This document shows positions 1-53,301 of a stretch of 64,000 nt of DNA, one piece after another. Source of the stretch: an uncultured Holophagales bacterium (GTDB lineage: Bacteria; Acidobacteriota; Thermoanaerobaculia; Multivoradales; UBA5704); assembly GCA_963842525.1 (NCBI GenBank), contig CAWJGT010000003.1, positions 1,536,001-1,600,000 on the forward strand. Reading direction: 5' to 3'. The notes beneath the pieces are model-generated. The model did not search any database. It was not told the DNA's origin and saw only the letters and a list, made by a program, of their open reading frames with translations. Positions within the stretch are counted from its first letter, which is position 1. Every line of letters begins with the position of its first letter. The translations under genes were made by a program, and so were the position numbers.

Positions 1-3000
1 GCGGCGGAGCGCGCCAGGCGGCGCAGGCGGTCGGCAACGTCGGCCGGCGGACTCGCCTTGACCATGAAGACACCGGTGGCCCCCGGCTGCGGCCCGGTCC
101 GTCGCGGCAGCGTCGTGGACTCGGCATCGGTGAGGAGCCGCCGCCAGAAATCACGTGCCTCGGCGGATTCCAGCGTGTGCCGCTCCAGCTCCACGTATTC
201 GCGGAAGGTCGAGGCGAGCGCCGTTTCGGCCGCGGGCGCCTCCCCGTCCAGCAGCGCCTTGTAGCGCCGGAAGAGGTCGGTCAGCAGGGTAGCGGCGCTC
301 CAGCCGTCGAGCACGGAGTGATGAAAGCTCAGGGTGAGCTGGAAGGCCGCGTCCTCCAGGCGGTGGGCGTGGAAGCGCACGAGCGGCGGGCGCGTCCAGT
401 CGAAGGGCCGGTGCACCTCGGCCTGCAGCCAGGCCGCCACCGCGGCATTCCGCGCCTCGGCCGGCAGGTGCCGCAGGTCTTCGCAGACGAGCGGCGGCGC
501 CACCTCCGCCTGCACGAGCTGGAGAGGCTCCGTGAACCCCGAAAGAGCGAACGACGTGCGCAGCACGGGATGGCGGCGGGTCACCTGGCCGATGACGGCG
601 GCAAGCAGGTCCGCGTCATACCGCGTGCGCAGCCGGAAGCTGTGCAGGTCGTGGTAGACCGCCGACTCCGGGTCGAGCTCGCTGTGGAACAGCATGCCGG
701 CCTGGAGCTGCGTGAGCGGATAGGCGTCCTCCAGCCCCGGGGGGAGCCGCCGCCGGTCGGCCTCGGTGACCAAGGCGAAGGGCCCGGCCGGCGGCGGCGC
801 GCTCCTGTCCTCCGCGACCAGTGCGACATGCCTGGCGAGCTCGCGGATCGTCGGATGGCTGAAGATGTCCTGCACGCTCAGCTCGATGCCGCGCTTCCGG
901 GCCAGTGGGCTGACCTGGACGGTGCGGATCGAGTCCCCGCCGAGGTCGAAGAAGTTGTCGTCGAGGCCCACCCGTTCCACCTCCAGGACGCGTGCCCAGA
1001 TCTGGGCCAGGACCTCCTCGGCCAGATTGCGCGGGACGGCGTACTCGGCCGCGCGCCCCGTGCCCTGCGGCTCGGGGAGCGCCTGGCGGTCGAGCTTGCC
1101 GTTCGGCGTGAGCGGCAGGGCTGCGAGCGCCACGAAGGCGGCCGGGATCATCGGCTCGGGGAGCCGGCCGGCGAGGAAGCTCCGCAGCTCCGCGGCCAGC
1201 TCTCGCCCGTCCGCCGGACCGGCCGGCACCACATAGGCCACCAGGCGCGGGACGCCGTCCGCCGGGCGGGGCATCACGGCGGCCTCGGCCACCGCGGGAT
1301 GGGCCGCGAGCGCCGCCTCGATCTCGCCGGGCTCGATGCGGAAGCCGCGGACCTTCACCTGGCTGTCGATGCGCCCCAGGAACTCCAGCTCGGCGTCCGC
1401 GCGCAGGCGCACGAGGTCGCCGGTCCGGTAGAGGCGGTCCCCCGCCTGGCTCTGTCCGCAGCCGGCGAAGGGGTCGGGCACGAAGCGCTCGGCGGTGAGG
1501 TCCGGCCGGCCCAGGTAGCCGCGCGCCAGGCCGGCGCCGCCGATCCAGAGCTCGCCCGCCACACCCTGGGGGACCGGCCGCAGGCCCGGCCCCATCACAT
1601 AGAGACGGGTGTTGGCGATCGGCCGACCGATCGGCACCGCGCCTGCCGCGGGATCGCCGGGCTGCACCTCGTAGATGCAGCAGCCCACGGTCGTCTCCGT
1701 GGGCCCGTATTCGTTGATCAGCCGGGTGCCGGGGGCGTGCTCCCGCCAGGCCGTGAGGCTCTCGGCCCACAATGCCTCGCCGCCGATCACCAGGGCGCGG
1801 GCACGCCCCGCCAGCTCCTCGGGCGCCAGGAGATGGCGCAGGACCTGGAGGTGCGCCGGCGTCAGCTTGACCAGGCTGAAATCGCCGCCCGCCCGCAGCG
1901 CGGCGGCGAGGGTGGCCGCCCCCTCCTCCTCGGGCAGCAGCACCGCGGGGGAGCCGGCCACGAGCGGCACGAGCAGGCTGGTGACCGTCAGGTCGAAGCC
2001 GATGGCGGAGTGGACCGGCGCCCCGCCGCCCTCGCCCGCGCGGTAGCTCTCCGCAGCCCAGTCGAGATAGTTGGCCAGGCCGCGGTGGGGGACCATGACT
2101 CCCTTGGGCCGTCCGGTCGAGCCCGACGTGTAGATCACGTAGGCCAGGTCGTCCGGCCCCGCCGAGCGCTCCAGGTCGTCCGCGTTGCGCCGTGCGATCC
2201 TCCGCCGGTCCTCCCCCCCGTCGTCGAGCCGGACGATGCGGGGGATCCCGGCGAGCCCGGGACGCAGCGCCAGGATCTCTTCCCGGGTGACCAACAGGGG
2301 GAGCGCGGCGTCGGCCGCCATGAATGCGAGCCGCTCGGCCGGGTATCCCGGATCGAGCGGGACGTACGCCGCTCCCGTCTTGAGCACGGCCAGCACCGCC
2401 TCGACCATCTCCTGGGAGCGCTCCAGGCAGAGGCCGACCAGCGCCCCGGGGAGAGCTCCGAGCGACCGGAGATGGTGCGCGAGGCGGTTGGCGCGGGCGT
2501 TCAGCTCTTCATAGGTGAGGCGGAGCGCTCCTCCTGCGGCGACCGCCGTTCCCTGAGGGGCGCGCCGGGCGCGCTCCTCGAACCGATCGTGGGCGAGCGT
2601 TCCGGGGAGAGGGCGCGCGGTGCGGTTCCACTCGACGAGCAGCTCCCGGCGCTCGGCCTCCGAGAGCACGTCGATCTCGGCGAAGGGGAGGGTGGGGTCT
2701 GAGCAGACCCCGTCCAGCACCCGCTGGAAGCGGCCGAGCAGCGTCTCGGCGCGCTCCCGGTCCCAGACCAGGGGATCGAAGCGGAGATCGAGTGCGATCG
2801 AGCCCCCTCCGACCCGTGCCGTGAGCCCCAGGTCGCAGCGGTCCGCACCGGCATACCCGGTGTGGAGCGTGAACGGGTGGCCGTCGAGAGGGATGCGGGT
2901 CTCCTCGCAGGCGAAGCCGAAGGGCCAGCGCTCGATCCGCTCCGGCGGGAAGAAGAGCTGCCACTCGGCCGCCTCGGCCATCTGGATTCCTACAGCGGAG

Positions 3001-3914
3001 ACCAGGTCGCGCAGGGTCGAGCCGGCACCGATCTCGGAACGGACGGGAAGCGACCGGGTATAGGGGCCCAGCGCGTCCGCGAATTCGGCAACGGCTCGCC
3101 CGTCGAACGGCACGCCCACCACGAAGGCGCTTTCGCCGGTGGCCAGCCGGAGCGTCGCCTGCCAGCAGGAGAGCAGCAGCAGCGACAGCGAGGTATCCAG
3201 GCTCGCGGCCAGCCGCTCGACGACCGCGGCCCGATCGTGCCCGAGACGAAGGGAGATGGTCTGCGGCGCGTACGGTGCCTCGGTGCCGGCCAGGCCGGAG
3301 AGGTCCTGCCGCTGCCAATAGGCGAGCCCCGCCTCCCCCTCGACCGGTCCGAGCCACTCGTGGAATGCTTCCGTGGCGTCGGCGTACTGCAGGGGCTTCT
3401 CCCCGTCTTCAATCCCTGTATAGGAGCGGGCCAGCTCTCCGGCCAGTCTGCGGAGCGAAGGCGTGTCCGCGGCGAGGGCGGGCAGGGTGAGCAGGAGGGC
3501 GTGGCGCGCGGGGCCGAGATCGAGGAGCGCGGCGCGCACCAGCGGTCCCGCGGCGAGGTCGAATGGGGTGGCGCGCTCTGCTTCCAGGAGCCGCTCGCGG
3601 GCCGCCTCCCACTCCTCTCCGGCCATGCCGGCAATGCTGGCCAAGCCGCGCTCGGCCAGCTCGACGGCGCCGGTTTCGTGGACCACCTGGACCGGGAGGC
3701 TCATCCCGGGCAGCAGAGGGAACGTGGTACGCAGGATCTCGTGCCGCTCGACCGCCCGCTCCAACGCCCGCCGCAGCCGCTCCCGATCGAGGGCGCCCTC
3801 GATCTCGACGCTGCACTGGACCACGAAGTCCCGTCCCCCTTGCCCATTCTGGAGGCGCCAGATGTGCTGTTGCTGGGGCGAGAGGCGAAAACCTTGCAGA
3901 GACGTCTTTTCCAT
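1..3914 (-). CDS. NRPS, truncated at left window edge: interface-type (inactive) C domain - A(Asn) - T - C (modAA/dehydrating-like, partial)
   Basis: Absent from the ORF track because it has no stop in the window. Translated by hand from ATG 3914 (GGAG upstream): MEKTSLQGFRLSPQQQHIWRLQ...LTLPALAADTPSL (no HHxxxDG). The same frame carries YVIYTSGSTGRPKG, GFDLTVTS, SLVKLTP, LVIGGE, INEYGPTETTVGC (code DLTKVGEVG = Asn), T motif DNFFDLGGDSI, then EDAYPLTQLQAGMLFH...SFHHSVLDGWS. Confidence 0.92.
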   Translation of the reverse strand, partial: MEKTSLQGFRLSPQQQHIWRLQNGQGGRDFVVQCSVEIEGALDRERLRRALERAVERHEILRTTFPLLPGMSLPVQVVHETGAVELAERGLASIAGMAGEEWEAARERLLEAERATPFDLAAGPLVRAALLDLGPARHALLLTLPALAADTPSLRRLAGELARSYTGIEDGEKPLQYADATEAFHEWLGPVEGEAGLAYWQRQDLSGLAGTEAPYAPQTISLRLGHDRAAVVERLAASLDTSLSLLLLSCWQATLRLATGESAFVVGVPFDGRAVAEFADALGPYTRSLPVRSEIGAGSTLRDLVSAVGIQMAEAAEWQLFFPPERIERWPFGFACEETRIPLDGHPFTLHTGYAGADRCDLGLTARVGGGSIALDLRFDPLVWDRERAETLLGRFQRVLDGVCSDPTLPFAEIDVLSEAERRELLVEWNRTARPLPGTLAHDRFEERARRAPQGTAVAAGGALRLTYEELNARANRLAHHLRSLGALPGALVGLCLERSQEMVEAVLAVLKTGAAYVPLDPGYPAERLAFMAADAALPLLVTREEILALRPGLAGIPRIVRLDDGGEDRRRIARRNADDLERSAGPDDLAYVIYTSGSTGRPKGVMVPHRGLANYLDWAAESYRAGEGGGAPVHSAIGFDLTVTSLLVPLVAGSPAVLLPEEEGAATLAAALRAGGDFSLVKLTPAHLQVLRHLLAPEELAGRARALVIGGEALWAESLTAWREHAPGTRLINEYGPTETTVGCCIYEVQPGDPAAGAVPIGRPIANTRLYVMGPGLRPVPQGVAGELWIGGAGLARGYLGRPDLTAERFVPDPFAGCGQSQAGDRLYRTGDLVRLRADAELEFLGRIDSQVKVRGFRIEPGEIEAALAAHPAVAEAAVMPRPADGVPRLVAYVVPAGPADGRELAAELRSFLAGRLPEPMIPAAFVALAALPLTPNGKLDRQALPEPQGTGRAAEYAVPRNLAEEVLAQIWARVLEVERVGLDDNFFDLGGDSIRTVQVSPLARKRGIELSVQDIFSHPTIRELARHVALVAEDRSAPPPAGPFALVTEADRRRLPPGLEDAYPLTQLQAGMLFHSELDPESAVYHDLHSFRLRTRYDADLLAAVIGQVTRRHPVLRTSFALSGFTEPLQLVQAEVAPPLVCEDLRHLPAEARNAAVAAWLQAEVHRPFDWTRPPLVRFHAHRLEDAAFQLTLSFHHSVLDGWSAATLLTDLFRRYKALLDGEAPAAETALASTFREYVELERHTLESAEARDFWRRLLTDAESTTLPRRTGPQPGATGVFMVKASPPADVADRLRRLARSA

Positions 3915-3935: not shown

Positions 3936-6900
3936 CTAGCTCTCCGTCACCGGGACCAGACGGCGTTGTGCCCGCCGGACCACCTGGCTCTGGCGTTGCT
4001 GAGCCCGCATCCGCCGCGCCGCGGGATCGAGCCCCCGCAGCTCTGCCGCCAGCTCGCCCACCCCGGCGTCCGGCCGGGCGGCGGCGCACACCACCGCCAC
4101 GAAACCGTCGAGCAGGCTCACGGCGGTCGGCGCCGTGAAGAGATCCGTGCTGTACTCCAGGCGCACGTCGAGCCCCGAGCCGCTCTCCGTCAGGTTGAAC
4201 AGCAGGTCGAACTTGGCCGTGCGGGTATCAAGGTCCAGGTGGGTGACCGTCAGATTGCACGCGCGCCGCACCGCGGCCGGGGTGTTCTGCAGCACGAGCT
4301 TGACCTGGAAGAGCGGCGTGCGGCTCAGATCGCGCGCCGGTTTCAATGCCTCCACCACCTTGTCGAAGGGGGCATCCTGGTGGGCATAGGCGTCGAGCGT
4401 CAGGCGCCGCACGCGGCGCAGCAGCTCGCGGAACGTAGGCTCCCCTGACACGTCGATACGCAGCGCGAGCTGGTTGACGAAGAGCCCGATCAGCCGTTCG
4501 GTCGCGCTCTGCGTCCGGTTGGCGATGTCGGTTCCGATCACCAGGTCATCGCTCCCCGAGGCGTGCCGCAGCAGCACCGAGAAGGCCGCGAGCAGGGCCA
4601 TGAAGAGAGTCGCCTCCTCCTCGCGCAGGGTCTGGCGTAGCGGCTCGATGATCTCGCTGCGGATCCAGGTCCGCTCGACGGCACCATGGCCTGTGCGGAC
4701 GCAGGGGCGCGGCCGGTCGGTGGGCAGCTCCAGGAGCGGCAGCCCGGCGAGCCGCTGCCGCCAGTAGTCGATCTGCCGGGAAAGGACCTCCCCCTCCAGC
4801 CAGCCGCGCTGCCAGGCGGCGTAGTCGGCGTACTGCACCGGCAGCTCGGACAGCCGCGCCTCGCGCCCTTCGACGAGCGCTTCATAGAACTCCAGCACCT
4901 CGCCGAAGACGACGCTCCAGGACCAGCCGTCCGCGGCGATGTGGTGGATGTTGAGCAGGAGCTCGGACTCCGTGGGCGCGAGCCGCAGCAGGCAGGCCCG
5001 GAGGATGGGGCCGCGGTAGAGATCCAGCGGCAGGCGGGCGGCCTCCAGGGCGACGCGCCGGCTCTCGGCCTCGGTCCGGGAGGCCGGCAGGGCGCCGAGA
5101 TCGATCAGCGGCAGGGCGCCCAGGAAACGCCCCTCCGCGGGCGCGATCACCTGGCGCTGCTCGCTCTCGTCCACCGCGAAAACGGTGCGCAGCACCTCGT
5201 GCCGCTCCACGAGCCGCTCCAGCGCGGTACGCAGCGCCTGCCGGTCCAGCTCGCCGCTCAGCCGCAGGACCACCGGCAGGTGGTAGGAGGCGTCTCCCGG
5301 CGCGAGCCGTTCCAGGAAAAGCAGCCGCTGCTGCGCGAACGAGAGAGGCAGGGGAGCGGTACGCGGCACCCGGACGATCAGCGGCGTGCTGCCGTCCTCG
5401 CGCCGCTCCCCGATCCGCGCCGCGAGGCCCGCGACCGTGGGCGCCGCGAAGAAGCTATCCAGGGTCAGCTCGCAGCCGAAGGTCTCACGCACCTGCGAGA
5501 TCACCCGGGTGGCGAGGAGGGAGTGCCCGCCGAGCTCGAAGAAGTCGTCGTACACCCCGATCTCCGCGATGCCCAGGAGCGCCTGCCAGACCGCGACCAG
5601 GCGCCGCTCGACCGCGTTGCGCGGCGCCACGTACGCCGTACCCAGGTCCGGCCGCGCGTGCCCGGCGGCCGTTTCCACGGCGGCCTGCGCCGGAGCCGGC
5701 GCCTCGGCAGTTTCCTGCGTGGCGGGCGCGGCCTGCAGCGCCCGGCGTTCGATCCAGTAGCGCCGCCGCTGGAACGGGTAGGTGGGCAACGGGATGCGCC
5801 GCCGCGCCTCGCCGGCCCAGAACGCCTGCCAATCGACCGCGGCGCCGGCCAGCCAGAGCCTGCCGAGGGCGCGCAGCAGCACGGCCAGATCGGACCCTTC
5901 CTCGCGCGGGTGGCGCAGGGAGGCGACCACGTCATGCCCCGCTCCGGGCGGGATCTGCCGCCGCGCCAGCTCGCCAAGGGTGCGGCCGGGACCGACTTCG
6001 AGGAGCGTCAGGCCCTCGATCGCTTCCGCCAGGAGCTGCTGGAGGCCCGGTCCGAAGCGCACGGTTTCGCGCAGGTGGCGTACCCAGTAGGCGGGATCGG
6101 TGGCCTGCCCGGCGGTGATCCAGGTCCCGGTCAAATTGGAAAGATAGGGAGTCGCCGGGGCGAGCAGAGTCACCCGCGACACCCGCTCGGCGAAGGGGCG
6201 GAGGGCCGGTTCCATCATTGCGGAGTGGAAGGCGTGGGAGGTCTGCAGCCGGCGGGTGACCGCGCCGCGCGATTCCAGGCGCCTCTCCAGGTCCGCGATC
6301 TCCTCCTCCGGTCCCGCGACGGCGCAGAGCCCCGGGCCGTTCACCGCGGCCAGGGCCAGGCCGCCGGCGAGCTCCCGCTCGATCTCCGCCTCCGTCAGAT
6401 CGACCGCGAGCATGGCGCCCGGGGGCAGCTCCTGCATCAGCTCCCCGCGCGTCGCGATCAGGTCGAGGGCATCCTCCAGCGAAAGGACGCCGGCGAGGCA
6501 GGCCGCTGTGTACTCGCCGAGGCTGTGGCCGATGAGAGCAGCAGGCTCCACCCCCCAGGACAGCCACAGGCGGGCCAGAGCGTGCTCGACGGCGAAGAGG
6601 GCCGGCTGCGCGTAGCGGGTCTGGCGCAGCCGGCGCTCCGCCGAGACCGCCGGCTCTCCGGCCGCCGGGTACAGGAGCGTGCGCAGGTCGCATCCCAGCC
6701 GCGGCGCGACCCTTTCGGCGCACTCGTCGAGGGCACGGCGGAACGCGGGCTCGCTCTCGTAGAGACCGCGTCCCATGCCCGGGTGCTGCGCCCCCTGCCC
6801 GGGGAAGAGGAAGGCGACGGGGCGGCGCTCCGCGGCGCGGCGCGTCACGAGCCGTTGGGGGTCGCGTTCGCGCAATGCCGCGGCCGCCTCCTCCGGTGCG

Positions 6901-9900
6901 GAACAGACCAGCGCGCGGCGGCAGGGGAAAGGCCGGCGCCCGATCTGCAGGGTGTAGCAGGCGTCGGCCAGGCTGTTGCCGGGGTGGCGGGCCAGGTGCT
7001 CGGCGAGCCGGCCGGTCGCCTCCTCCAGCGCGGCCGGGGTGCGGGCGGACAGGAGGAGGAGCTGGAAGGGCCGCGACGGACCGCCGGGGAGGGGCTCAGG
7101 AGCCTCCTCGAGGACGGCGTGGGCGTTGGTGCCGCCGATGCCGAACGAGCTGACGCCGGCGCGGCGCGGTGTGTCGCCGGCCGGCCAGTCGGCCAGCCGG
7201 GTATTGACATAGAAGGGGCTGGAAGCGAAGTCGATGGCCGGGTTCGGCTGCTCGAAGTGGAGGCTGGGCGGGATCTGCCGGTGCTTCAAGGCGAGCGTCG
7301 CCTTGAGGAAGCCGGCGATTCCGGCGGCGGTGTCCAGGTGCCCGATGTTGGTCTTGATCGACCCCAGGGCGCAGAAGCCGGTCCGCTGCGACCCTCCGGC
7401 GCGGAAGGCGCGGGTCAGTGCGGCGACCTCGACGGGATCGCCGAGCTGCGTGCCCGTGCCGTGGGCCTCCACGCAGCTCACGCTGTCGGGGTGGACGCCG
7501 GCCGCGGCTTGTGCGGCCGCGATCACCTGCGCCTGCCCTTCGACACCTGGGGCGGTGAACCCGACCTTCAGCGCGCCGTCGTTGTTGATGGCGGTACCCC
7601 GCACCACGGCGTGAAGGGTGTCGCCGTCGCGCAGGGCGTCGTCCAGGCGTTTGAGCACCACGACGCCCACGCCGCTGCCGGGCACCGCGCCGCGCGAAGC
7701 CGCGTCGAAGGCGCGGCAGTGACCGTCCGGCGACAGGACGCCCGCGTCCTGGTAGAGATAGCCGGTCCCCAGCGGGACGCGTACCGCCACGCCGCCGGCC
7801 AGGGCCATGTCGCACTCCCGGTTGGCCAGCGCCTGGCAGGCGAAGTGGATGGCGACCAGGGAGGTCGAGCACGCCGTCTGCACCGCCACGCTGGGCCCCT
7901 TGAGGTCGAGGGCATAGGAGGTGCGGGTCGCCACGTAGTCCTTGTCGACGCTGGGCTGCAGAGCGAAGGGTCCGAGCGCCTCCAGGATGTCCGGCCGCGA
8001 GAGCAGGTTGAAGAGGTAGGTGCTCATCTGCGCTCCGGCGTAGACCCCCACCGGGCCGGACGGCCGCCGCGAGTCGTAGCCGGCGTGCTCCAGCGCCTGC
8101 CAGGCGTGCTCCAGGAAGAGACGCTGCTGCGGGTCGAGAACCTCGGCGTCGCGCGGGCTCAGGCCGAAGAATTCGGCATCGAACAGGTCGATGTCGGTGA
8201 GCTCGGAGGCTGCCTTGACGTAGCGGTCCAAGGCCAGGAGCTCGGGCCTGATGCCGTTGGCCAGGAGCTCGTTGACCGTCAGCCAGCGGAGCGACTCGAC
8301 GCCGCGGCGCAGGTTGTCCCAGATCTGGTCGAGGTCGGCGCCGCCCGGGAAGCGGCCGGACATGCCGATGACTGCGAAGGCGGGGCGGCCGGCGACCCGG
8401 TCCGGCGCGGGAACCGGCCGGCTGCTGGCCGCCGGCTCCCCTCCCGCCAGGTGGGCGGCGAGCCTGGCCACCGTGGGGTACTGGAACAGCTCCACGATTG
8501 GGATGTCGCGACCCAGGGAACGGAGCAGGCGGGCATGGACCTCGACGAGCCGCAGGGAGTGGCCTCCGAGGTCGAAGAAGTTGTCGTGCAGCCCCACCCG
8601 CTCGACCCCGAGGACCTCCTGCCAGGCGGCGGCGATCCGGCGCTCGATCTCGCTCCCGGGCACCGCATGGGTGGGCCGCTCGCGGACGGCTTCGTCCGGC
8701 GGGGGCAGGGCGCGGCGGTCCATCTTGCCGTTGGGGCTGAGCGGCAGGGCGCCCAGGAAGACGAACGCAGACGGGACCATGAATTCGGGCAGCCGCTCGC
8801 GAAGGAAAGCCCGCAGCTCCGCGGCGGGCGGGTGCGAAGCGGCACCGGCGGCGATCCAGGCGACGAGGATCTCTTCACCGCGATGGTCGTTGCGGACGCC
8901 GGCCGCTGCCTCCCGCACGGCGGGATGGAGGGTCAGGGCCGCCTCGATCTCGCCGGGTTCGATGCGGAAGCCGCGCACCTTGACCTGGTCGTCGATGCGG
9001 CCGACGAGATCGAGCGCGCCGTCCGGCCGCCAGCGGACGAGGTCGCCGGTGCGATAGAGACGGTCGCCGGGCCCGGCGCCGAACGGATCGGGGATGAAGC
9101 GCTCCGCCGTGGCCGCCGGCCGGGCCAGATATCCCCGCGCCAGGGCGATGCCGCCGAGGAGCAGCTCTCCGGGCACGCCCTTAGGCACCGGTGCCAGCGC
9201 CGGGCCGAGCAGGTGCACGCGCAGCCCCGCCAGGGGGCGGCCGATGGGAACCCGCTCGCTCTCGTGGCCGGTGGCCTGGTGGAGGCTGGCGCAGACCGTC
9301 GCCTCGGTGGGGCCGTAGGCGTTGAAGAAGCGCCGGCCCGGCGACCACAGGCGGGCCAGCGGGACCGGGCAGGGCTCACCCGCCACGATCAGGGTGCGCA
9401 GCGCCGGGAGCTGCTCCGGCGCGTCCGCGGGCATGGCCGCCAGCGCCGTGGGCGGCAGAGTGGCGTGGGTGACCCCCTGGCGCCGCAGCAGAGCCAGCAG
9501 GCCGGGACCGGGCAGCAGCTTCTCCCGGGGCGCGAGCACCAGGGTGGCACCCGCGGCCAGCGCCATCCAGATCTCCGAGACGGACGCGTCAAAGCCGGGC
9601 GAGGAGAATTGGAGGATGCGGTCCCCAGGCCCGACGCCGAAGGCATGCCCCTGGGCAGCGGCCAGGTGGGGGATGCCGCCGTGCTGCACCAGGACCCCCT
9701 TGGGCCTTCCCGTGGAGCCGGAGGTGTAGATCACGTAAGCGAGCTGGTCCGGCTGCAGCGGCGGCAGCGCGGGCGGGGGAGCCTGGGAGGAGGCAGCCTC
9801 GAGCTCGCGGTCGAGCCGGACGATCCGTACCGCGGGGCCGGCCAGGGCGGAGAGCCGGTCGGACAGCGCGGAAGTGGTGAGCAGGAAACGCGCCCCGGAG

Positions 9901-12900
9901 TCCGCCAGCAGCAGGCGGAGCCGCTCGGGCGGATAGTCCGGATCGAGGGGCAGGTAGGCGCCCCCGGCGAGGAGCGTGCCGAGCATGGCCTCCACCAGAC
10001 GCGGCGAACGTTCGCAGCAGAGGGCCGCCAGATCCTCCGGTCCGATGCCGAGAGCGCGCAGGTGGCGGGCCAGGAGCCCGGCGCGGCGGGCCAGCTCACC
10101 GTAGGAGATCCGCTCCTCGCCGTGGAGCAGGGCTGGGGCCGCGGGATCGCTGGCGGCGTGGGCGGCAAAGAGCTCCGGTGCGGTGGGAACGGCCGTAGCG
10201 GTGGGCCCGCCCTGACTCCAGACGCGCAGCTCCTCTGACTCGGCCATGCCGAGGAGCGGCAGGTCTGCCAGGGTGAGATCCGGCCGGGCGGCCGCCCCCT
10301 CCAGCAGGGTGCGCAGGTGCTCGAGGAGCCGCCTCGCCGTGGACCGGTCGAAGAGGTCGGCGGCGTGCTCCAGCGCGGCGGCCAGGCCGGCATCCGTCTC
10401 GGTCACGGAGAGCGTCAGGTCGAATTTGGACACCTCGGAGGCCACCGCCACGGGGGAGAGGGTCAGGCCCGGCAGCTCCAGCGGCTCCAGGGGCGCATTC
10501 TGGAGCGCTAGCATGACCTGGAAGAGCGGGCCATGGGCGAGCCTGCGCTCGATCCCCAGGTCGTCCACCAGCCGCTCGAAGGGGAGCTCCTGGTGAGCGT
10601 AGGCGCCCAGTGCCGTGGTGCGGGCCCGCGCCAGAGCCTCGCGGAAGGCGAGCCCGGGGGACAGGCGGACGCGCAGCACGAGGGTGTTGGCGAAGAAGCC
10701 GACCAGGTTCTCAAGCTCGGCATGGTTGCGGTTGGCGATGGGCGTGCCGACGAGGAGGTCCCCGTCGCCGCTGTAGCGGTGCAGCAGGGCCTGGAAACCG
10801 GCGAGGAGGACCATGAACAGCGTGGCGCCCTCCCGCCGTGCGAGATCCGCCAGCGCCTGGGCGAGAGGCGGACCGAAGGTGGTGAGCTCGACGGCGCCGC
10901 GGTAGCTCGGGACGGGGGGCCGCGGCCGGTCGGTGGGCAGCTCGAGGAGAGCCGGCGCCCCGGCGAGCTTCCCGGCGCCACCAGGCGAGCTGGGCGTCCA
11001 GAGCCTCGCCCTGCAGCCAGCCGCGCTGCCAGATGGCATAGTCGGCGTACTGGACCGGCAGCGCGGGCAGCGGCGAGGGCTCACCGCGAAGGAAGGCGGG
11101 GTAGAGGGCTGAGACCTCCCGGACCAGCACGCCTACGGACCAGCCGTCGCTCACGATGTGATGCAGGTTGAGCAGGGCGGCGTGCTCCTCCGCGGCGAGC
11201 CGCAGCAAGGTGACCCGGACCAGGGGGCCAAGCTCGAGGTCGAAAGGCCGCATCGCCGCGGCGGTCAGGAGGGAGCGGACCTCCCGCTGCCGGACCTCCT
11301 GCGGCAGGCCGGCGAGGTCGACGAGGGGCAGCTCGAGCCGCGGCGCAGCGGAGATCACCTGGAAGGGCCGGCCCTCCGCCGCCAGGAACGTCGTGCGCAG
11401 CACCTCATGGCGGCGAGCCACCTCGGCGAGGCTCGCGGCCAGCGCCGGCACGGAGAGCAGGCCGCGAAGCCCGAGGGCCAGCGGGACGTTGTAGGCCGGG
11501 CTGCCCGGCTCGAGCTGATCGATGAACCAGAGACGCTGCTGCGCGAACGACAGAGGCACGGGCCCCTGGCGCGGCATCGGGACCAGGGGCGGAGCGAGCG
11601 GGCCCGCACCGGCCCGCCGCGCCGCCTCGACCCGCGCCGCGAAATCTGCCAGCACCGGGGCCTCGAACAGATCGCGCAGCGGCATCTCCACCTTGCAGAC
11701 GCTGCGCAGACGGGACGTCACCTGCGTCGCCAGCAGCGAGTGTCCGCCCAGATCGAAAAAGTGGTCGGCCGACCCGACCCGTTCGAGACCGAGGAGCTCG
11801 GCCCAGATCCCGGCGAGGATCTCTTCGACCGGCGTCCGCGGCGCCAGACAGGTTTCTGCGCTCTGCAAATCCGGAGCGGGCAGGGCCTTCCGGTCCACCT
11901 TGCCATTCGGGGTGAGGGGGAGCGCTGCGAGCATGACGAACGCGGCCGGCACCATGTAGTCCGGCAGCCGCTCGCCCAAGGCCTGGCGCAGCTCCTCGGC
12001 AGTGGCGTCACCGGTGACATAGGCAATCAGCCGCCGGTCGCCCGGCGATCGGACGGATCGGTCTGATCGGTCGGATCCGTCCGATCGCGCTACCACGACC
12101 GCCTCGCGAACCCCGGGCAGGGCGACCAGCGTCGCTTCGATCTCGCCGAGCTCGATGCGGAAGCCGCGGACCTTCACCTGGTGGTCGGTGCGGCCGAGGA
12201 ACTCCAGGCGCCCGTCCGGAAGCTGGCGCGCCAGGTCGCCGCTGCGGTAGACGCGGCGGCTTCCGATCTCGGGGAACCTCTCCGCCGTGAGCTCCGGACG
12301 GCCGAGATAGCCGCGGGCGACCCCTGCGCCGGCGATGCAGACCTCGCCCGGCACCCCGATCGGGACCGGATCGCCCCAGCGGTCCAGCAGCAGGACCGCC
12401 GCGCTGTCCAGGGGACGGCCGAGCGGCGTCGCTCCGGGGCTGCCGGACCAGCCGGCCCGCGCTTCCTGGCGGCAGCAGATAATGGTGGCCTCGGTCGGGC
12501 CGTAGAGCACCTGGACGCGCGCCCGGGGGAAGACCTCCTCCATGTCTGCCAGGAGGTCCGGGGGCACCGCGTCGCCACCGACGAACGCCATGCGCAGGCC
12601 GGGCCAGGGGCCGCTCTCCCGCGCCGCCTCCACGACCTGGCGCATCAGCGCCGGTACGGCGTGGAGGAGGGTCATCTCCCCCAACCGCCCCACCAGATGG
12701 CCGACATCGAGCGTCGGGCGCAGGCCGAAGAGGACGGTACAGCCGCCGGCGAGCAGCGGGCTCAACAGCTCGAACAGGAAGATGTCGAACGAGAAGGATG
12801 CGAGGCAGGGCATGCGGTCGGCCGCCGAGAAGCTGAAGGCGCGCCGGGCCGCCGCGAGGGTGCTCGCCAGGCTCCGGTGCTCGACGACCACGCCCTTGGG

Positions 12901-20114: not shown

Positions 20115-23100
20115 CTAACCCCTCGCCCGCTGTGCCTTCTGCAGGCGCTGCCGGCGGAAGTCCCGGCCCTCGCGGAGCTTTTCGGATCGATCGGGCTCCG
20201 GGCGGGACGCAGCCGGTCCTGCTTCCGGTTTCGCGATCCCCGAACCGATCAGATGCCGCGCAAGCAGGCCCACGCTCGGGTGGTTGAACATCTCGACCAG
20301 GGAGATCTCCCGGTCGAGCGCCTGGTACAGCGCGTTGTGGAAGCGGACCACGTGCACCGACGTGGCGCCGAGGTCGAAGAAGTTGTCGTCTACGCCCACC
20401 CGCGGCAGCCCGAGCACCTCGGTCACCACGCCGGCGAGGACCCGCTCCAGCTCCGTCTCCGGCGCCACGTAGGGCCGGGTGGCCGGCTTCGCTTCCGCCT
20501 GTAGCGCATCCGGAGGCGGCAGGGCCTTGCGGTCGACCTTGCCGTTGAGGCTCAAGGGGATCTCCTCCAGACGCACGAAGTGGGCGGGCACCATGTACTC
20601 GGGGAGCCGGCCGTGCAGGTGCTCCCGCAGGTCGGCGAGGACCTCGCGCTCCGGCCGCGGGGCCGGCGGCGGCGCGCCCTCCGGTCCGAGCAGGCGCACC
20701 AGCTCGCGGTCTTGGGCCGCTTCGGCCTGGAAGGCGGCGAGCCCGGTCTGGCCAGCGGCGAGCCGGCCGCCCAGGATCGCGTGTACCAGCTCGTGGCTCT
20801 CATCCAGGCCGAAGTGCCTCCGGACCTCGCCGAAGCGGACACCGCCCACCTGCGACAGGCCGATCCGGCGCTCCGGCGCCGACATCTCCAGGAGCTGGGT
20901 CATCAGACCCGCCTCCAGGAGCGCGAAGTCCCGGGCGCGCTCGCCGTAGAGCGGCGCGATCGCAGCCATCCGCGCAATCAGGAAGACGGCGAACGCCGCC
21001 TCCTCGAAGGTCGCCCGGTTGACCGGGTCGTAGAGCGAAGCGTCGAGCCCGGCCCCGGCGAGCCGTGCCAGCCGGTGCTCCCGCGGGTCGTAGTAGTAGA
21101 TCCCCTCGTCCAGTGCTTCCACCCGGCCCGGCTTGATCCAGAGATGGGCCTGGACCGGGTAGAGGTTCCCCGCTGAGCCGTAGCGGAGCTTGGGGAACGG
21201 CGACCCTTCGACGTCCACCTGAAGGAGGCAGGAGAGGAACCCGGCGAGGTCGTCCAACGGGACGGGCTCGCGCAGGAACTTGCGGAAGCTGCGCCGCCGC
21301 AGGTAGCGGGCCTCCAGCTCCTCCGGCGTCAGCTCCGGCCGTTTCAGAGAGACGGTTGCGAAGTCTCCGAGGTCGCGGCGCAGGCCGTGGTGCTGGAGCT
21401 TGAAGCGCAGCCGCTCCACCGGATCGACCGGAGCCGCCGGAGCAGGGGGCTGCTCGTCGCGCAGGACGACCCAGGCGACGAGCTGTTTGGTCCCCTGGCG
21501 CTCCCCCACGGCATCGACGACCGCCGCGGCCACGGCCGGGTGGCGGGACAGGGCAGCCTCGATCTCGCCGAGCTCGATGCGGTGCCCCTGGACCTTCACC
21601 TGGAAGTCGTCGCGGCCGAGGAACTCGATGTTGCCGTCCGGCAGCAGGCGCCCGAGGTCGCCGGTACGATAGAGCCGTTCGCCGGTCCGCGGATGGACGA
21701 TAAAAGCGGCGGCGGTCTTCTTCTCGTCGCGCCAGTACCCCCGGGCCAGGCCGGCGCCGCCGATATAGAGGTGCCCCAAGACCCAGACCGGCCGCGGCTC
21801 CAGCTCCTCGTCGAGCACATGGAACCGCTGGCTCGCCATGGCCTTGCCGTAGGGGATGCTCGCCCAGCCCGGCGCGACCTCGCCGATGGGATAGAGGATC
21901 GACCAGATCGACGCCTCGGTGGCGCCGCCCAGGCTGATCACACGGGCCCCTGGGAACGCCGCCCGTACGCGGTCCGGCAGGCGCAACGGGATCCAGTCGC
22001 CGGAGAGAAGGACCGCGCGCAGCGGGAAGCCCGGCACGTCCGGACGCCCCTCCCCGTACTCGACGAGCATCTCTATCAGGGCCGGCACGGTGTTCCAGAC
22101 CGTCACGCCGGTGCGCGCCGCGAGCTCGGCCCAGTGGGCAGGGTTGCGCTCCGTCCCGGGATCAGGTACGACCACGGCGCCGCCCGCCGCCAGCAGCCCG
22201 AAGAGGTCCCAGACCGAGAGGTCGAAGCTCAGCGAAGACAGGGCGAGGACCCGGTCGCCCGGGCCGGTCCCGAGCCGCTGGTTGACGTCCATCACGGTGT
22301 TGAGGGCGCCGCGGTGGTCGATCATCACTCCCTTGGGCTGGCCCGTGGAGCCGGAGGTGAAGATCACGTACGCCAGATCGCCGGGCCGCTGGATCGGCGG
22401 CAGCGGCTCGCCGCGCGCCGCAGAGAGCATCTCCGTGCACACGGCGATGGGCTCGACGCCGGGCGGCCCATCGAGATCGATTCCGCTCTGCGTCAGCGCG
22501 ATCGACACCTCGCCGCTCTCCAGGAGGTGGCGGATCCGCTCGCGTGGCAGGCGGGCGTCGACCGGCAGGTAGGCGGCGCCGGCGCGGAGGATGGCGAGGA
22601 CCGCCAGCGCCTGCTCCCAGCCCTTGTCCATGACTACCGCGACCAGGGTGTCGGGGCGGGCGCCGAGGTGCCGCAGGCGGCGCGCCAGGGCCAGGGAGGC
22701 ACGGTCGAGCTCGCCGTAGGTGACCGTGCGGCGCGAGGTGATCACCGCCGGCGCGTCCGGGCGCCGCCGGGCCTGCACCAGGAACGGCTCGTGGAGGAGA
22801 CGGGACGGGACCGGAGCGTCCGTGGCGTTGGCCTCGGCGATCAGCGCCCGGTGGGCCGCGGGCAGCAGGTCGCAGACCGGCTCGCGCCAGGCCTCCTCCC
22901 CCTCCGCGAGGCGCTGCACCAGCCGGCCGTACGCCGCGAACATGTCGTCGAGCAGACCGGGCGGGAAGAGCTCCTCGACCGCGTCCCAGCTCCAGGCCAG
23001 GACGCCGCCGGACTCGGCCACCTGGTGGTCGAGCCAGACCTGGGGCGTCTGGGTGATGCTGTAGACCGTCTCGCCGTCGAAGGGGCTCTCCGTCTCCGCC

Positions 23101-26100
23101 TCGTCGCCGGTCCCGGCCTGGTTGAGGGTGCTGGTAAAGACCACGGGCATCAGGGTGCCCGGGCCGCCCTGGACGCGGGCCAGCTCGCGCAGCACGCGGA
23201 CGCCGCTGACCAGCCAGTTCTCCAGGTCGTCCCAGAGCCGGCCCTGGAGGCGGCGCGCCCGCTCCTCGAACGGCTCGCCGGGCAGCGGCTCGGAGGCGAG
23301 GAGGGTCAGCGAGGTGAAGTCGCCGACGATGCGGTCCACCTCGGGGTGGAGCGGCGGCCGGTTGAACAGGGTCAGGTTGAGGGTCAGCCGCGGGCTCTGG
23401 CTCCACGCCGCCAGCACCTGGGCGTAGGCCGCGGCCAGCAGGCTCGACGGCGTGAGAGCCACGCGGGCCGCCCGGACCTTGAGGCGCGACCAGGCGTCCC
23501 GCTCGAGGCTTGCCCGCCGGCGCACGAAGCGCGGCGCGGCAAGCGACGACGGGCTCTGCGCCAGCGGCAGGGCGGGCGAGGGGGGGAGGCTCGCGAGCCG
23601 GCCGCGCCAGTAGTGGAACGCCCGCCGGTACGCCTCCGTCTCGTGGAGGGCCGCCTCGGCCAGAACGCAATCGCGGAAGGAGAGCGTGAGCGGCTCGAGC
23701 TCCGTCCCGGGATCGGCATAGAGGAGCGCCAGCTCGCGCCCCAGGAGGCGGAAGCTCCAGGCGTCGCCGATCAGGAGGTCGAGGCTGACGTGCAGCCGCG
23801 TGCGGCCGCCGGGGAGCCGCGAGGCCGCGATCTCGAAGAGCGGCCAGCGGTCGCTGGGGAGGACCTGATGCGACAGGCGGCCGCGCACAGCTTCCAGGGC
23901 CTCCTCCTCCGCGGCGTTCGCCGCCTGCCGCAGGTCCACCACGCCGATCCGGTAGGGGGGCACCTCGGGAAGGATGCGCTGCCGGCCGTCGGGCTGGACC
24001 ACGGCCCGCAGCATGCTGTGGCGGTCGATGAGGCGCCGCAGGGCCGACTCCAGCCGGGCCAGGTCGAGCCCGCGGAGGTCCACTTCGAAGTAGATGTGGG
24101 TCGCGACCGAGCCCAGCTCCAGGGCGCCGCTGCGGCCGATCCAATACGCTTCCTGGACGTCGGTCAGCGGGAACGGGAGGTGCATCGAGGCCGGGTCGGG
24201 CACGAGGCGCGGCAGGGCCACGTCCGCCGGCTCACCTTCCGGCCGCGCAGCCACGGCAGCGGCAAGCCCGGCCACCGTCGGGTTTTCGAACAGCACCCGC
24301 AGCGGCAGATCGGCGCCGAAGTCCTGCTGGATCCGGTACATCAGCCGGGTGGCCAGGATGGAGTGGCCGCCGAGCTCGAAGAAGTTGTCCTGCGCGCCCA
24401 CCCGCTCCACGCCCAGGATGTCGCCCCAGAGTGCTGTCATCGACTCCTCCACCGGTCCCCGCGGCGCCACCCAATCCGCGGCGGCGGTCTCCCGGCGCGA
24501 GGGCGTCACCGCGCGGACGGTCCTGGCGGCCAGGGGCGCGAGCAGCGGCAGCTCCGAGAGGCGCTGCCCGGGATCGGCGGCGGCGCCGGCGAGCAGGGCT
24601 GCGAGCTGCGCGGCAAGGCGCTCGGCCGTGGTGCGGTCGAACAGGTCGGCGTTGTGCTCCAGGGAACCGGCGAGGCCGTCCTCCACCTCGGCGAAGGAGA
24701 GAAGCAGCTCCAACTTGGCCGCGCCGGTGGCGACCGGCTGCAGCGACAGGGCGAGCCCGGGGAGCTGGAGTCGCTGCGCCGGGGCGTTCTGCAGGATGAC
24801 CATCACCTGGAAGAGCGGCGGCCGGGCCAGATCGCGCGGCGGCTGCAGCTCCTCCACCAACTTCTCGAAGGGGAGGTCCTGGAGGGCGTAGGCATCGAGA
24901 GCGGCCTCGCGTACCCGGCCGAGCAGGGTGCGGAACGCCGGGTCGCCTGCGAGGTCGCCGCGCAACGGCAGGGTGTTGAGGAAGAGGCCGATCAGGTCCT
25001 CCACCTCCGGACGGTTGCGGCCGGCCACGGGTGTGCCCACCACCAGGTCGTCCTGGCCGCTCACGCGGTGGAGGAGGACCTGGAAGGCGGCGAGCAGCGC
25101 CATGAAAAGGCTCGCCCCCTCGCCACGGGCCAGAGCCAGGAGGTCCGCCGCCGCCCCGCGGTCCAGGCGGAAGGGCACGCTGCCACCGCGGAAGCTCTGT
25201 ACCGGCGGGTACGGACGGTCGGTGGAGAGGTCGAGGGCAACGGGGGCTCCGGCGAGGCGCGCGCGCCAGCGGTCCGCGAGCCGCGCTACCGTCTCAGGGG
25301 TCAGCCAGCGCCGTTGCCAGGCAGCGAAGTCGGCGTACTGGACCGGGAGCTCCGGCAGGGACGCGCTCCCGCCCTCCAGAGCCGCGGCATAGAAGGCCGA
25401 GAGCTCGCGTACGAAGATGCCGACCGACCAGGCGTCGCAGACGATGTGGTGCGCCACCAGGAGAACACCGTGCTCCCGCGCGCCGAGCCGGAACAGGGTT
25501 GCAAGCAGGAGCGGCCCGGCCGCGAGGTTGAACGGCCGCGCGGCCCCGGAGGCAGCCTGCCAGTCCAATTCGGCGTCGCGCCGGCCGGCCGGCAGGGCCG
25601 CCAGATCGACCATGGGCAGAGGAACCGCGGCGGCCGGCGCGATCACCTGCCGCGGCTCGCCCGCGACCGCCGGGAAGGTGGTGCGCAGGGCCTCATGGCG
25701 GCGGACCACCCTGGCCAGGGCCGCCGCCAGGGCCGTTGCATCGAGGCCGCCCTCCAGACGGAGGAGGGCTGGCAGGTTGTACGAGCCGCTCCGCTCCAGC
25801 CGGTCGAGGAACCAGAGCCGCTGCTGGGCGAAGGAGAGGGGGATCTCTCCGTCGCGCCCGGTGGGTACGACCGGCGGGGCCTCGGGGGCACGGCCGACCC
25901 GCATCGCGGAGGCGAGGCGGCCGGCGAGCCCGCGCACCGTGGGCCGTTCGAAGATCCAGCGCACCGGCGGCGTGACACCCAGGGCGCGCCCGGCGCGGGA
26001 GGCGATCCGTGTCGCCAGCAGAGAGTGCCCGCCCAGGGCGAAGAAGTCGTCGTCGATCCCCACGCGCCCGGCGCCCAGCACCTCGGCAAAGAGGCTGGCC

Positions 26101-35100: not shown

Positions 35101-38100
35101 TCGATCACCGGCAGGGAGGTCTCCAGGCCGGGCAGGATCCGCTGGCGCGGTATCCCGTCCACGGCCTGGAAGACGGTACGGAGCGACTCGTGCCGGCGGA
35201 CCACCTCCCGGAGGGCGCCGGCCAGGGCGCCTACATCGAAGATCGCCGGTGAGCTCCACCGGGCTGGGTATATTGAAAGTGCCCGTGCCCGGCTCCAGAC
35301 GGTCGAGGAACCAGAGGCGCTCCTGGGAGAAGGAGAGGGGGAAGACCTCCTCGCCCGGCCGGCGCGGCAGTCGCGGGATGGTGGCTTCGGCGTCCGACAC
35401 CGCCGCTGCGCTCGAGGTCGGCCGCCAGCGCCTCGATGGTGGGCGCTTCGAACACCCGGCGCACGGGCAGGCTCACTCCCAGAGCCGCGCGCACCCTGGC
35501 CAGCATGCGCGTGGCGAGCAGCGAGTGGCCACCGAGCTCGAAGAAGTCGTCGCGGGCGCCCACCCGCTCGCGGCCGAGCAGCTCCTCCCAAAGTCCGGCG
35601 AGCAGCTTTTCGAGCGGCGTGCGCGGCGCCACCCAGTCGGCCCCGGCGGTCCGGTCCGGGGCCGGCAGCGCCTTGCGGTCCACCTTGCCGTTGGAGGTGA
35701 GTGGAAGGGCGGCAAGGGTCACAAAAACGGCGGGGACCATGTAGTCCGGGAGGCGGTCGCGCAGGGACTGGCGCAGGGTTTCGGCGGCGGCGTCGCCGGC
35801 CACATAGGCCACCAGGCTGCCTTCCCGGACCACGACCACGGCCTCGCGGACCCCCTCCAGGGTGGAGAGGGCGGCCTCGATCTCCTCCAGCTCGATGCGG
35901 TAGCCGCGGATCTTGACCTGGTGGTCGAAACGCCCCAGGAACTCGATGGCCCCGTCCGGGTGGAAGCGGACCAGGTCGCCTGTGCGATAGAGACGCCCGC
36001 CCGGCTCGCCGAAGGGATCGGGGAGGAACCGCGCCGCGGTCAGATCGGGCCGGCCGAGATAGCCACGAGAGAGGGCCGGACCGCCCACCAGCAGCTCGCC
36101 GGCCACCCCGGCCGGCGCGGGCTGCAGGCGGCGGTCGAGCACATAGAGGCGGTTCTCGGCCGAGGGGTGGCCGATGGGGATGGAGACGAGCCCGCGCGGG
36201 CGCCAGTCCGCCGCCCGTCCGACCTCGTAGAGGGTGCAGTTGACCGCCGCCTCGGTCGGCCCGTAGCCGTTGAACAGGCGGCATTCCGGTCCGGTGACCG
36301 CGAAGGCCTCCGCGACGAGCCCCTCTCCCAGGGCCTCGCCTCCGAGATGGAGCACCTGAAGCGGGAGGCGCTCTCCCGCCGCCGCTGCGACGGCACGGAA
36401 GAAGGAGGGGGTGGTGTGGAGGGTGTTGATGCCGTGGCTCCGGACCTCGCGCAGGTAGCCCTCGATGTCGCTGCGCTCGGCCTCGCCGCGCAGGACGAGC
36501 GTGCCGCCGAACAGCAGCGTGGTGAGGATCTCGAAGACCCCGAAGTCGAAGGCATAGGACAGGCTCTGGAGGACCCGCGTGTGCTCGCCAAAGTCGAAGA
36601 CCTCGCGGCTCCAGAGGAGCAGCGGCACCAGGTTCTCGTGGGTGATGGGCACCCCTTTGGGAACCCCGGTCGAGCCGGAGGTAAAGATCACATAGGCGGT
36701 CCCGTCCCCCGTCCCGGCTGTCGCCGGGGAGAGAGGCTCCAGCGCCCGATCGAGGTCGTCCGGGCAGACCACGTGCGCCACGGCCGGGCACCTGTCGAGG
36801 CTCGTCCGGTCGGTGACGAGGACGGTGAGACCGCAGTCGGCGATCATCCGCTCGAGGCGCTCGGCCGGGAGGCCGGGATCGAGCGGCACGAAGCCACGTC
36901 CGGCCTTGAGGATTCCCAGCATCCCCACCAGCAGCGGCAGGTCCGGTGCGGCCATCAGGCCGATCAGGCCGCGGCCTTCGTAGCTCAGGAGCAGGCGTGC
37001 CAGCCGTCCCGCCTGCTCGTCGAGCTCCCGATAGGTAAGGGTCTTCCCCTGCCAGATCGCGGCGATCTTGCCGGGGGTCCGTGCCGCCTGCCGCGCGAAC
37101 AGCTCGTGGATCAGGGTGGGAATCGGGGTCTTCCACCCCGCCGAGCTCCACTCTTCAAGGATCGTCCGGCGCTCCGCCTCGCCGAGCAGGGGGAGCTCGA
37201 AGACGCTCGCCCCGGAAGCCTCGGTGGCCGCCGCGAGGAGGTGCTCGAAGCAGCCGGCCCAGCGTTGGATCGTCCCCTCTTCGAACAGGTCGGCGCTGCC
37301 GATCAGGTCGCCGGCAAAGCCGCCCCCCTCCTCGGCCAGAGCCAGGGAGAGGTCGAACTTGGCCGCCCAGCTCTCCTGCGGGAGCAGCTCCACGGTGAGC
37401 CCCGGCAGACGCAGCGGCTCCACCGGCGTGTTCTGCAGGGCGAAGGAGGCCTGGAACAGCGGTGTGTACGCCAGGTTGCGCCCGGGCTGGACCTCCTCGA
37501 CGAGCTTCTCGAAGGGCAGCTCCTGGTGGTCGTAGGCCTCCAGGGTGTGGCGGCGGGTGCGGGCGAGGAAGCCGGCGAACGAGGGCTCGTCCGCCAGGTT
37601 GGCGCGCAGCACGAGAGTGTTGACGAAAAATCCAATCAGGCCCTCGACCTCGGCGCGCTGGCGTCCGGCCACAGGGGTGCCGACGGTGAGGTCGGTCTGG
37701 CCGGAGAGGCGGGAGAGCAGGGCCTCGAAGGTGGCGAGCAGAACCATGAACGGGGTGGCGCCGGTGCTCAGAGCGAGACGGCGGACCCTCTCGGCCAGCT
37801 CGGGAGAAAGGCGGAGCCGGCGGCTCGTGCCGCGCTCGCTCGCCACGGCCGGGCGGGCGCGGTCGGTGGGCAGCGCCAGCTCCGGCGGCGCGCCGTGCAG
37901 GCGCTCGCGCCAGAAGCGAAGCTCGCCTTCGAGGGCCTCGCCGCTCAGGCGGCGGCGCTGCCAGGCCGCGAAGTCCGCGTACTGGAGCGGGAAGCTCCGG
38001 CAGGGGGGAGGGCCGGCCGGCGGCGAAGGCCTCGTAGAGGGCCGCGGTCTCGCGCACGAGGATGGCGATGGACCAGCCGTCCGCCACGATGTGGTGGAGG

Positions 38101-41822: not shown

Positions 41823-53301
<11,479 letters not shown>

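Follow-up and report, generated by a model that had tools for sequence, protein, structure and literature searches.

Interface (I) domains of nonribosomal peptide synthetases (NRPSs) are said to have been first defined, by Reitz et al. in 2019, for the Asp and His modules of siderophore pathways. They are currently taken as markers of an adjacent beta-hydroxylase; the available text of one recent study reports that an interface domain was dispensable. The accessible part of that study, on myxoglucamide, places the motif-less condensation (C) domain of MxgB in the interface group and describes the layout C-Ox / I-A-T, where A and T are the adenylation and carrier domains (Wang et al. 2026, PMC13638107). 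The same text describes a cryptic beta-hydroxylation of the carrier-bound residue, which is followed by a later decarboxylative dehydration that depends on a C domain. According to its accessible description, antiSMASH 8 has added profiles for interface domains. A further group of C domains, the modAA class, is linked to dehydration by a 2026 preprint, the available part of which reports an E1cB-type dehydration of carrier-bound residues by the CmodAA domains of AmbE, AlbB and AzeB (C2). The locus described here brings an interface domain and a modAA domain together. It lies in a stretch of 64,000 nucleotides (the window, about 73% G+C) from the 9.95 Mb genome of an uncultured Holophagales bacterium (GenBank assembly GCA_963842525.1, contig CAWJGT010000003.1, positions 1,536,001 to 1,600,000; G000:C3:1536001-1600000 in our coordinates). 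The locus contains a split NRPS module: a catalytic LCL-type C domain ends an upstream protein of mixed polyketide synthase and NRPS type, and the next protein opens with a dead interface domain, an Asn-type A domain and a carrier with a GGDS core.

The gene of this second protein is on the minus strand, starts with an ATG at window position 3914, and extends to position 1 and past the window start. Its full reading frame in the genome has 1870 codons for amino acids (C3:1534305-1539914). The domain order is I-A(Asn, DLTKVGEVG)-T(GGDS)-C(modAA)-A…, and Pfam finds Condensation, AMP-binding, PP-binding and Condensation in the protein with E values from 5e-89 to 2e-16. The I-A-T-Cmod part is a single open frame of 1500 or more codons with all core motifs intact. 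The N-terminus reads MEKTSLQGFRLSPQQQ both in the translation of the window (3914 to 3, minus strand) and in that of the full gene, with GFRLSPQQ at residues 8-15. The position of the HHxxxDG motif in the N-terminal domain is occupied by LLLTLPALAADTPS (LPALAAD), aligned opposite LLLTMHHIVSDGWS (HHIVSDG) of Txo2. The T domain contains FFDLGGDSIRTV with the GGDS core, and the second C domain contains PFALVTEADRRRLPPGLEDAYPLTQLQAGMLFHSELDPESAVYHDLHSF, followed by SFHHSVLDGWS; the strings LEDAYPLTQLQAGMLFH, YHDL and FHHSVLDGWS are also found in it. Every string quoted in a preliminary description of this DNA is present in the translation: the GFRLSPQQ start, LPALAAD in place of HHxxxDG, DLTKVGEVG, GGDS and those of the next C domain. 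The same description placed a C domain at 1-730. A C domain is indeed there, but only its first part is inside the window (Table 1).

The nine specificity positions of the A domain were extracted through an alignment of 269 A domains from this genome. In other modules the same columns return the canonical codes of Ser, Thr, Gly, Cys, Asp and His, and the mapping is therefore sound. The code of the target, DLTKVGEVG, is one that we take to be specific for Asn.

The best match of the N-terminal domain in the PDB is the LCL C domain of Txo2 (122 bits, E 2e-34). Six-frame translation of the genome yielded 280 full-length condensation-superfamily domains, 20 of which are without HH…D. Nine of these 20, the target included, have in common an FRLSPQQ start and a centre reading LPALCAD, the consensus of the clade, or LPALAAD. 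The nine constitute one clade with a support of 1.0 and a long stem. For each of them the preceding protein ends in a C domain and a new protein begins with I-A-T; in four cases a TauD dioxygenase, either fused to the C domain or encoded by a separate gene, is situated between C and I.

The same organization is seen in relatives. One genome per species was scanned with an alignment of four sequences, which gave 508 relatives, and the best 80 loci contain 107 interface domains from other genomes. Directly upstream of the interface domain there is a TauD in 89 cases, a C domain without TauD in 12, nothing within 1.5 kb in three, the edge of the locus in two and a split domain in one. A new reading frame begins, after C or TauD, at 103 of 104 interface domains in these loci. 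Where the layout of the TauD could be read, it has its own gene 54 times and is fused to the upstream C domain 24 times. The A domains that follow carry Asp-, His-, Asn-, Gln- and Glu-type codes. In the tree with other genomes the target interface domain is nested among the TauD-adjacent relatives. It keeps all 11 invariant and all 21 near-invariant residues of the family, as well as 61 of the 67 residues conserved at 80% or more, 61 also being the family median, and hence it is not a decayed copy. The N-terminal domain is very probably an interface domain, as judged from its sequence. The catalytically dead interface domain named in the preliminary description is borne out both by the absence of HHxxxDG and by the position in the interface clade.

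A tree of 115 interface domains and six outgroup domains places the target in a five-member subclade (support 1.0, stem 0.60). The other members are a second copy in the same genome (C3:588975) and one domain each from the metagenome-assembled Acidobacteriota genomes L024, L028 and L083. DLTKVGEVG is identical in all five. A TauD is present in L093, the nearest neighbour of the subclade in the tree. The subclade of the target is a conserved one and has lost its adjacent TauD dioxygenase. A phylum-wide search with the target interface domain gave matches at E ≤ 1e-40 in six of 401 genomes, its own among them, none closer than 38% identity, and added nothing to the subclade. As far as the accessible texts go, the open-access literature on interface domains contains no description of a hydroxylase-less interface subclade; most subscription journals are outside this coverage. 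Among the readable codes of this genome and of L024-L103, the interface modules without a hydroxylase are enriched for amide residues (Asn 8, Gln 4, Asp 3), and the TauD-adjacent ones are mostly Asp and His modules. In this genome the code DLTKVGEVG is linked to an interface domain in four of six cases and DLTKIGEVG in none of six.

The closest solved relative of the second C domain is McyA2 (PDB 8jbr, 423 bits, E 1e-125). It is followed by the CmodAA domain of AmbE (PDB 7r9x, 251 bits) and then by PvdL with 148 bits. Entry 8jbr is a C-A-PCP construct of McyA2, the C domain of which comes after the module yielding N-methyl-dehydroalanine (Mdha). The HHxxxDG motif of the second C domain is intact. 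In the genome-wide tree this domain is found in a separate clade of eight members (support 0.993) inside the DCL-like group. The modules preceding the eight are specific for Ser in four cases, Thr in three and Asn only in the target. The carriers are distinctive as well: the GGDS core is present in this genome before all eight E domains, all eight Cmod domains and all five T-adjacent DCL-like domains, whereas 163 of the 182 T domains preceding LCL domains have GGHS. GGDS therefore marks a carrier that serves an alpha-deprotonating partner. A search of the C domains against NCBIfam returned generic NRPS matches only and no C-domain subtype models. Membership of the second C domain in the dehydrating modAA class can be predicted with high confidence. 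The preliminary description had made the same assignment, and the domain indeed groups with McyA2 and the AmbE CmodAA domain, not with ordinary DCL or dual domains.

Two other modAA-class arrangements were noticed. Some 26 kb downstream of where the window starts (genome C3:1509028-1510335), the same cluster has another modAA-class C domain after a Ser module with the code DVWHVSLVD, which predicts dehydroalanine; next come a Thr-type A domain, into which an FkbM-type methyltransferase is inserted, and a Cy domain. In a related genome (L132 16506-19223, G003:C5) a Thr module is followed by a tandem pair of modAA-class C domains, T-Cmod-Cmod-A.

The preliminary description was also right in that the upstream protein ends in an intact C domain: its HHxxxDG motif is present, Pfam recognises it as Condensation, and it scores 550 bits with the LCL model and 185 with the I model. 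As the gap between the AT and T domains of this protein is 331 nt, there is no room for a KR domain. The upstream A-T-KS-AT-T part is thus predicted to hand a beta-keto, amino-acid-derived chain to the Asn module, the unit before Asn being taken as a Tyr-derived gamma-amino-beta-keto one.

The I-A(Asn)-T-Cmod arrangement is found in one other genome, L083, in the form C / I-A(Asn)-T-Cmod-T-TE. The Cmod domains of the target and L083 are sisters (support 0.962, 51% identity), and the interface domains of both fall in the five-member clade. The surrounding modules differ in L083, so that the conserved unit is the cassette and not the whole cluster. The domain after I-A-T could be read in 57 relatives: it is LCL in 40, KS in six, E in four, Cy in four, DCL-like in two and Cmod in one.

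These data make it possible to propose a course of events on the assembly line. An unlinked Fe(II)/2-oxoglutarate dioxygenase of the interface type, for which the gene at C13:16696-17745 is a candidate, would hydroxylate the carrier-bound Asn in trans at its beta position. The C domain of the upstream protein would acylate the carrier-bound hydroxy-Asn with the beta-keto chain. Before or during the next condensation, the modAA C domain would then take the alpha proton and expel the beta-hydroxyl by an E1cB route, giving alpha,beta-dehydroasparagine. This sequence of trans hydroxylation and modAA-catalysed dehydration is the reading that we tentatively prefer, with somewhat less than even confidence. 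It explains why a modAA domain, which otherwise comes only after Ser and Thr here, is placed behind an interface module, and also why the pairing is conserved. We infer both the hydroxylation of Asn and its dehydration. That the conserved I-A(Asn)-T-CmodAA cassette as such makes alpha,beta-dehydroasparagine with a hydroxylase encoded far from the cluster is a more doubtful proposition. In the open-access literature searched, which leaves most subscription journals outside, dehydroasparagine or didehydroasparagine is not mentioned, and no open-access paper was found in which hydroxyasparagine and an interface domain occur together.

The genome holds eight TauD (PF02668) matches, all of them on other contigs or 1.1 Mb away. 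Five are beside four interface domains, two fall in a clade apart, which has no association with interface domains, and one is an orphan. The orphan, the candidate on C13, belongs to the interface-associated clade, has no NRPS domain within 25 kb and, alone among the interface-type TauDs of this genome, has no interface domain of its own. Its identity to the interface-linked TauDs is 45-63%, and in the tree it stands, with weak support (0.76), next to the TauD in front of an I-A(Asn) module of L027. In the genomes with subclade members, no NRPS domain is found within 1.5 kb of its best homologues. Structure prediction for a complex of the target interface domain with the orphan TauD gave an ipSAE of 0.60 (0.62, 0.60 and 0.60 in separate runs; best control 0.00), with a contact agreement of at least 86% and a partner pLDDT of at least 84. 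The tool rates this as 'weak support'; by its own account most passes of this kind are false unless the pairing was already probable, and near relatives of a genuine partner pass as well. The result was not counted either way. Interface domains and TauDs that are not adjacent do occur elsewhere. In a related genome (G003:C5), the cluster of a TauD-less I-A(Gln) module also includes two TauDs, some 18 kb further downstream. In another (G002:C94), an asparagine-synthase gene precedes the closest homologue of the orphan, which lies 6 kb past an I-A(Asn)-T protein. The operon of the orphan could be responsible for a product of its own, which may be a modified free amino acid. In another genome (L124 2762-4018, G005:C83) a gene for a CmlA-type diiron beta-hydroxylase directly follows a stand-alone TauD that comes after a C domain, so that two types of hydroxylase adjoin.

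A considerable number of observations weigh against the hydroxylation and dehydration of Asn. The cluster covers about 86 kb, from the start of a fatty-acyl ligase gene at window position 53301 to an MFS transporter gene at C3:1502815, and includes a methyltransferase, an oxidase of nitroreductase type, and KR and DH domains. There is no TauD in it, the nearest on the contig being 1.1 Mb away. Pfam scans show no oxygenase in the cluster or among the flanking genes, and no CmlA_N or P450 near it, the two CmlA_N matches and the single P450 of the genome being elsewhere. A search of the genome for the AspH type (PF05118) gave nothing; it also gave nothing in the control genomes. The 2.4 Mb contig taken as that of L083 has a weak match as its only TauD, at a distance of over 1.2 Mb from the locus. 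In all five subclade members the element directly upstream is a C domain and not a TauD, and an ordinary LCL domain follows in three of the five. The orphan TauD is in an operon with genes for a glyoxalase, a class I/II aminotransferase and an Ldh_2-family dehydrogenase (L104 7756-11742, G000:C13:13756-17742), a setting that suggests a different pathway. In three related genomes the best homologues of this TauD show 59-64% identity and have different gene contexts without shared synteny, for which reason no argument can be made from co-inheritance. One Cmod-class domain, in L029, is preceded by a module with a Pro-type code, so the modAA class is not strictly tied to Ser and Thr. By our rough estimate, the chance that at least one of nine I-modules precedes one of eight Cmod domains in this genome is about 0.25 if the two are independent. 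Finally, the available text on myxoglucamide reports that the interface domain is dispensable for hydroxylation in vitro and may have other roles (Wang et al. 2026, PMC13638107).

The strongest rival explanation does without hydroxylation. The interface domain would be retained as a structural platform: it would partner the A domain in place of the cis C domain that the module lacks, and would dock the downstream protein onto the C-terminal C domain of the upstream one. Plain Asn would be incorporated, and the modAA domain would only condense or, as there is no leaving group for it to eliminate, would epimerise Asn by means of the same alpha-deprotonation. This explanation is nearly as probable as the preferred one, because the entire subclade is without a cis hydroxylase and the interface domain is reportedly dispensable in vitro, as stated in the accessible part of the myxoglucamide study (PMC13638107). 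TauD-less 'C / I-A-T' junctions are moreover common in the lineage: with matches of at least 320 bits in the related genomes taken as interface domains, those without an adjacent TauD number five of nine in this genome, five of nine in the L024 genome, five of six in the L028 genome and two of two in the L083 genome. A preprint reports, in the part available, that C domains boost the activity of their cognate A domains, which would give an interface domain a reason to persist. GGDS carriers also precede E and dual-type domains. It is difficult for this explanation that the target interface domain keeps the invariant residues at the level of the TauD-linked members, and that the only Cmod of the genome not following Ser or Thr is the one behind an interface domain, with the pairing conserved in L083.

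If Asn were hydroxylated in trans and the hydroxyl kept, the modAA domain condensing normally, the product would contain beta-hydroxyasparagine. Beta-hydroxy-Asn is a common residue of nonribosomal peptides, and the plain LCL domains after three of the subclade members would retain the hydroxyl if Asn is hydroxylated there. The modAA class is, however, a specialised one, seven of its eight members here coming after Ser or Thr, and its studied members dehydrate, as far as the available texts describe them; the hydroxyl-retaining product is accordingly improbable. Least probable of all, and only a slight possibility, is a decaying cluster in which the arrangement has no function, the frame breaks being real mutations and the hydroxylase having been lost. 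At least eight frame breaks do split NRPS domains in the cluster, including the A domain after Cmod. Such breaks are, however, also scattered over the NRPS genes of other contigs, and this points to indels of the assembly; the uninterrupted I-A-T-Cmod frame and its intact motifs argue against decay, as does the TauD-less state of the whole subclade in other genomes.

The beta-hydroxylation and dehydration of Asn put forward in the preliminary description has therefore kept its foundation in the interface and modAA domains, and has lost the expected hydroxylase in the cluster; both chemical steps stay conditional. That description had made its proposal depend on the class of the C domain and on a beta-hydroxylase in the cluster or genome. 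The C domain is modAA and not DCL or dual, the cluster has no beta-hydroxylase, and the genome has TauDs, one of them the interface-type orphan.

Several other features of the cluster and genome were noted. NRPS domains are split across frames at window 42175-46776, 37974-38513, 10816-10976 and 35227-35367 and at genome C3:1529493-1535363, the A domains being cut into two or three pieces and the C and E domains into two. The target gene is cut short by one such break, within its second A domain. As NRPS genes in other parts of the genome show breaks of this kind too, indels of the assembly are a likelier origin than decay. A second interface arrangement was considered for the pair of C-like domains that follow the next module. 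It was rejected: one is an E domain and the other a DCL domain, and each is interrupted by a frameshift. In a protein of 5678 residues an LCL-type C domain is directly followed by T with no A between them (C-T-Cy-A…, window 24240-25862), forming an A-less module. A Cys-type module (Cy-A, DLWNLSLIW; window 20523-22796) has a nitroreductase-family oxidase inserted in its A domain, which predicts a thiazole. For a genome of this size the NRPS content is very large: the 280 condensation-superfamily domains include E 8, Cy 6, DCL-like 27 (10 in modAA-like clades) and interface 9, and there are eight TauD genes or domains in addition.

Table 1. Positions in the window of the two proteins that meet at the split module, with their domains.
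Feature	Window position	Strand	Remarks
Upstream protein, C-A(DASTIAAVC)-T-KS-AT-T-C	11084->3936	-	stop at 3936-3938
A(DASTIAAVC)-T-KS-AT-T of upstream protein	5400..10181	-	no KR
C-terminal C domain of upstream protein, intact LCL-type, HHIAADGWS	4050..5369	-	
Interface (I) domain, protein N-terminus	2673..3914	-	C-like fold, LPALAAD replaces HHxxxDG
Adenylation domain, specificity positions DLTKVGEVG (Asn-type)	1080..2594	-	
Carrier (T) domain, GGDS core	813..1034	-	
C domain, predicted modAA class, first 57% (743 nt), FHHSVLDGWS intact	1..743	-	rest outside window, to genome C3:1535445

A TauD-less subclade that keeps every family-invariant residue is a natural test of whether interface domains act as recruiters of the hydroxylase, as platforms of split modules, or as both. 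If dehydroasparagine is made, Asn would join Ser, Thr and Glu among the residues open to modAA-domain chemistry, and the nonribosomal repertoire would gain a new electrophilic residue. This residue would come directly after a beta-ketoacyl unit with an active methylene, and the enamide could close a ring, for instance by Michael addition to a pyrrolidinone. The Asn-specific hydroxylase-less subclade would then also show that interface domains can recruit unlinked, shared hydroxylases. If instead no hydroxylation takes place, tools for which an interface domain suffices to predict beta-hydroxylation would be wrong about such modules.

The known interface domains that pair with Fe(II)/2-oxoglutarate beta-hydroxylases, among them those of GlmF (glidomide) and MxgA/MxgB described in the accessible texts, share with the target the C-like fold without HHxxxDG and the position at the protein N-terminus directly before an A domain. 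They also have in common the preceding protein ending in C, the sequence clade and a polar residue (Asp, Asn, Glu, Gln or His). The target differs in that no hydroxylase is adjacent or in the cluster, in its Asn-specific TauD-less subclade, and in the modAA C domain that follows, as it does in only one of the 57 readable relatives. For the second C domain, the second-module C domain of the microcystin synthetase McyA is the closest solved relative, matched over its full length; the Ser upstream of it has a beta-hydroxyl of its own, whereas the Asn of the target has none unless it is hydroxylated. The match to AmbE of the methoxyvinylglycine (AMB) pathway also covers the whole length, and L083 shows an AmbE-like ending, A-T-Cmod-T-TE. 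AmbE reportedly acts on a residue that has first been hydroxylated by stand-alone TauD-type enzymes, and these hydroxylases are said to be encoded in the same cluster. Its substrate is Glu and it has no interface domain; the target module has Asn and no linked hydroxylase. With myxoglucamide, the available text of which describes MxgA(C-Ox) / MxgB(I-A-T), the target shares the split module with an interface domain and, in the preferred reading, would share the cryptic beta-hydroxylation on the carrier and the subsequent removal of the hydroxyl by way of a C-like domain (PMC13638107). According to the same text, the myxoglucamide module takes Glu, its dioxygenase forms one protein with the preceding C domain, the C domain responsible for dehydration belongs to the dual clade and not to modAA, and the interface domain could be dispensed with in vitro. 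The parts of the locus are thus known, and their combination is a new variant.

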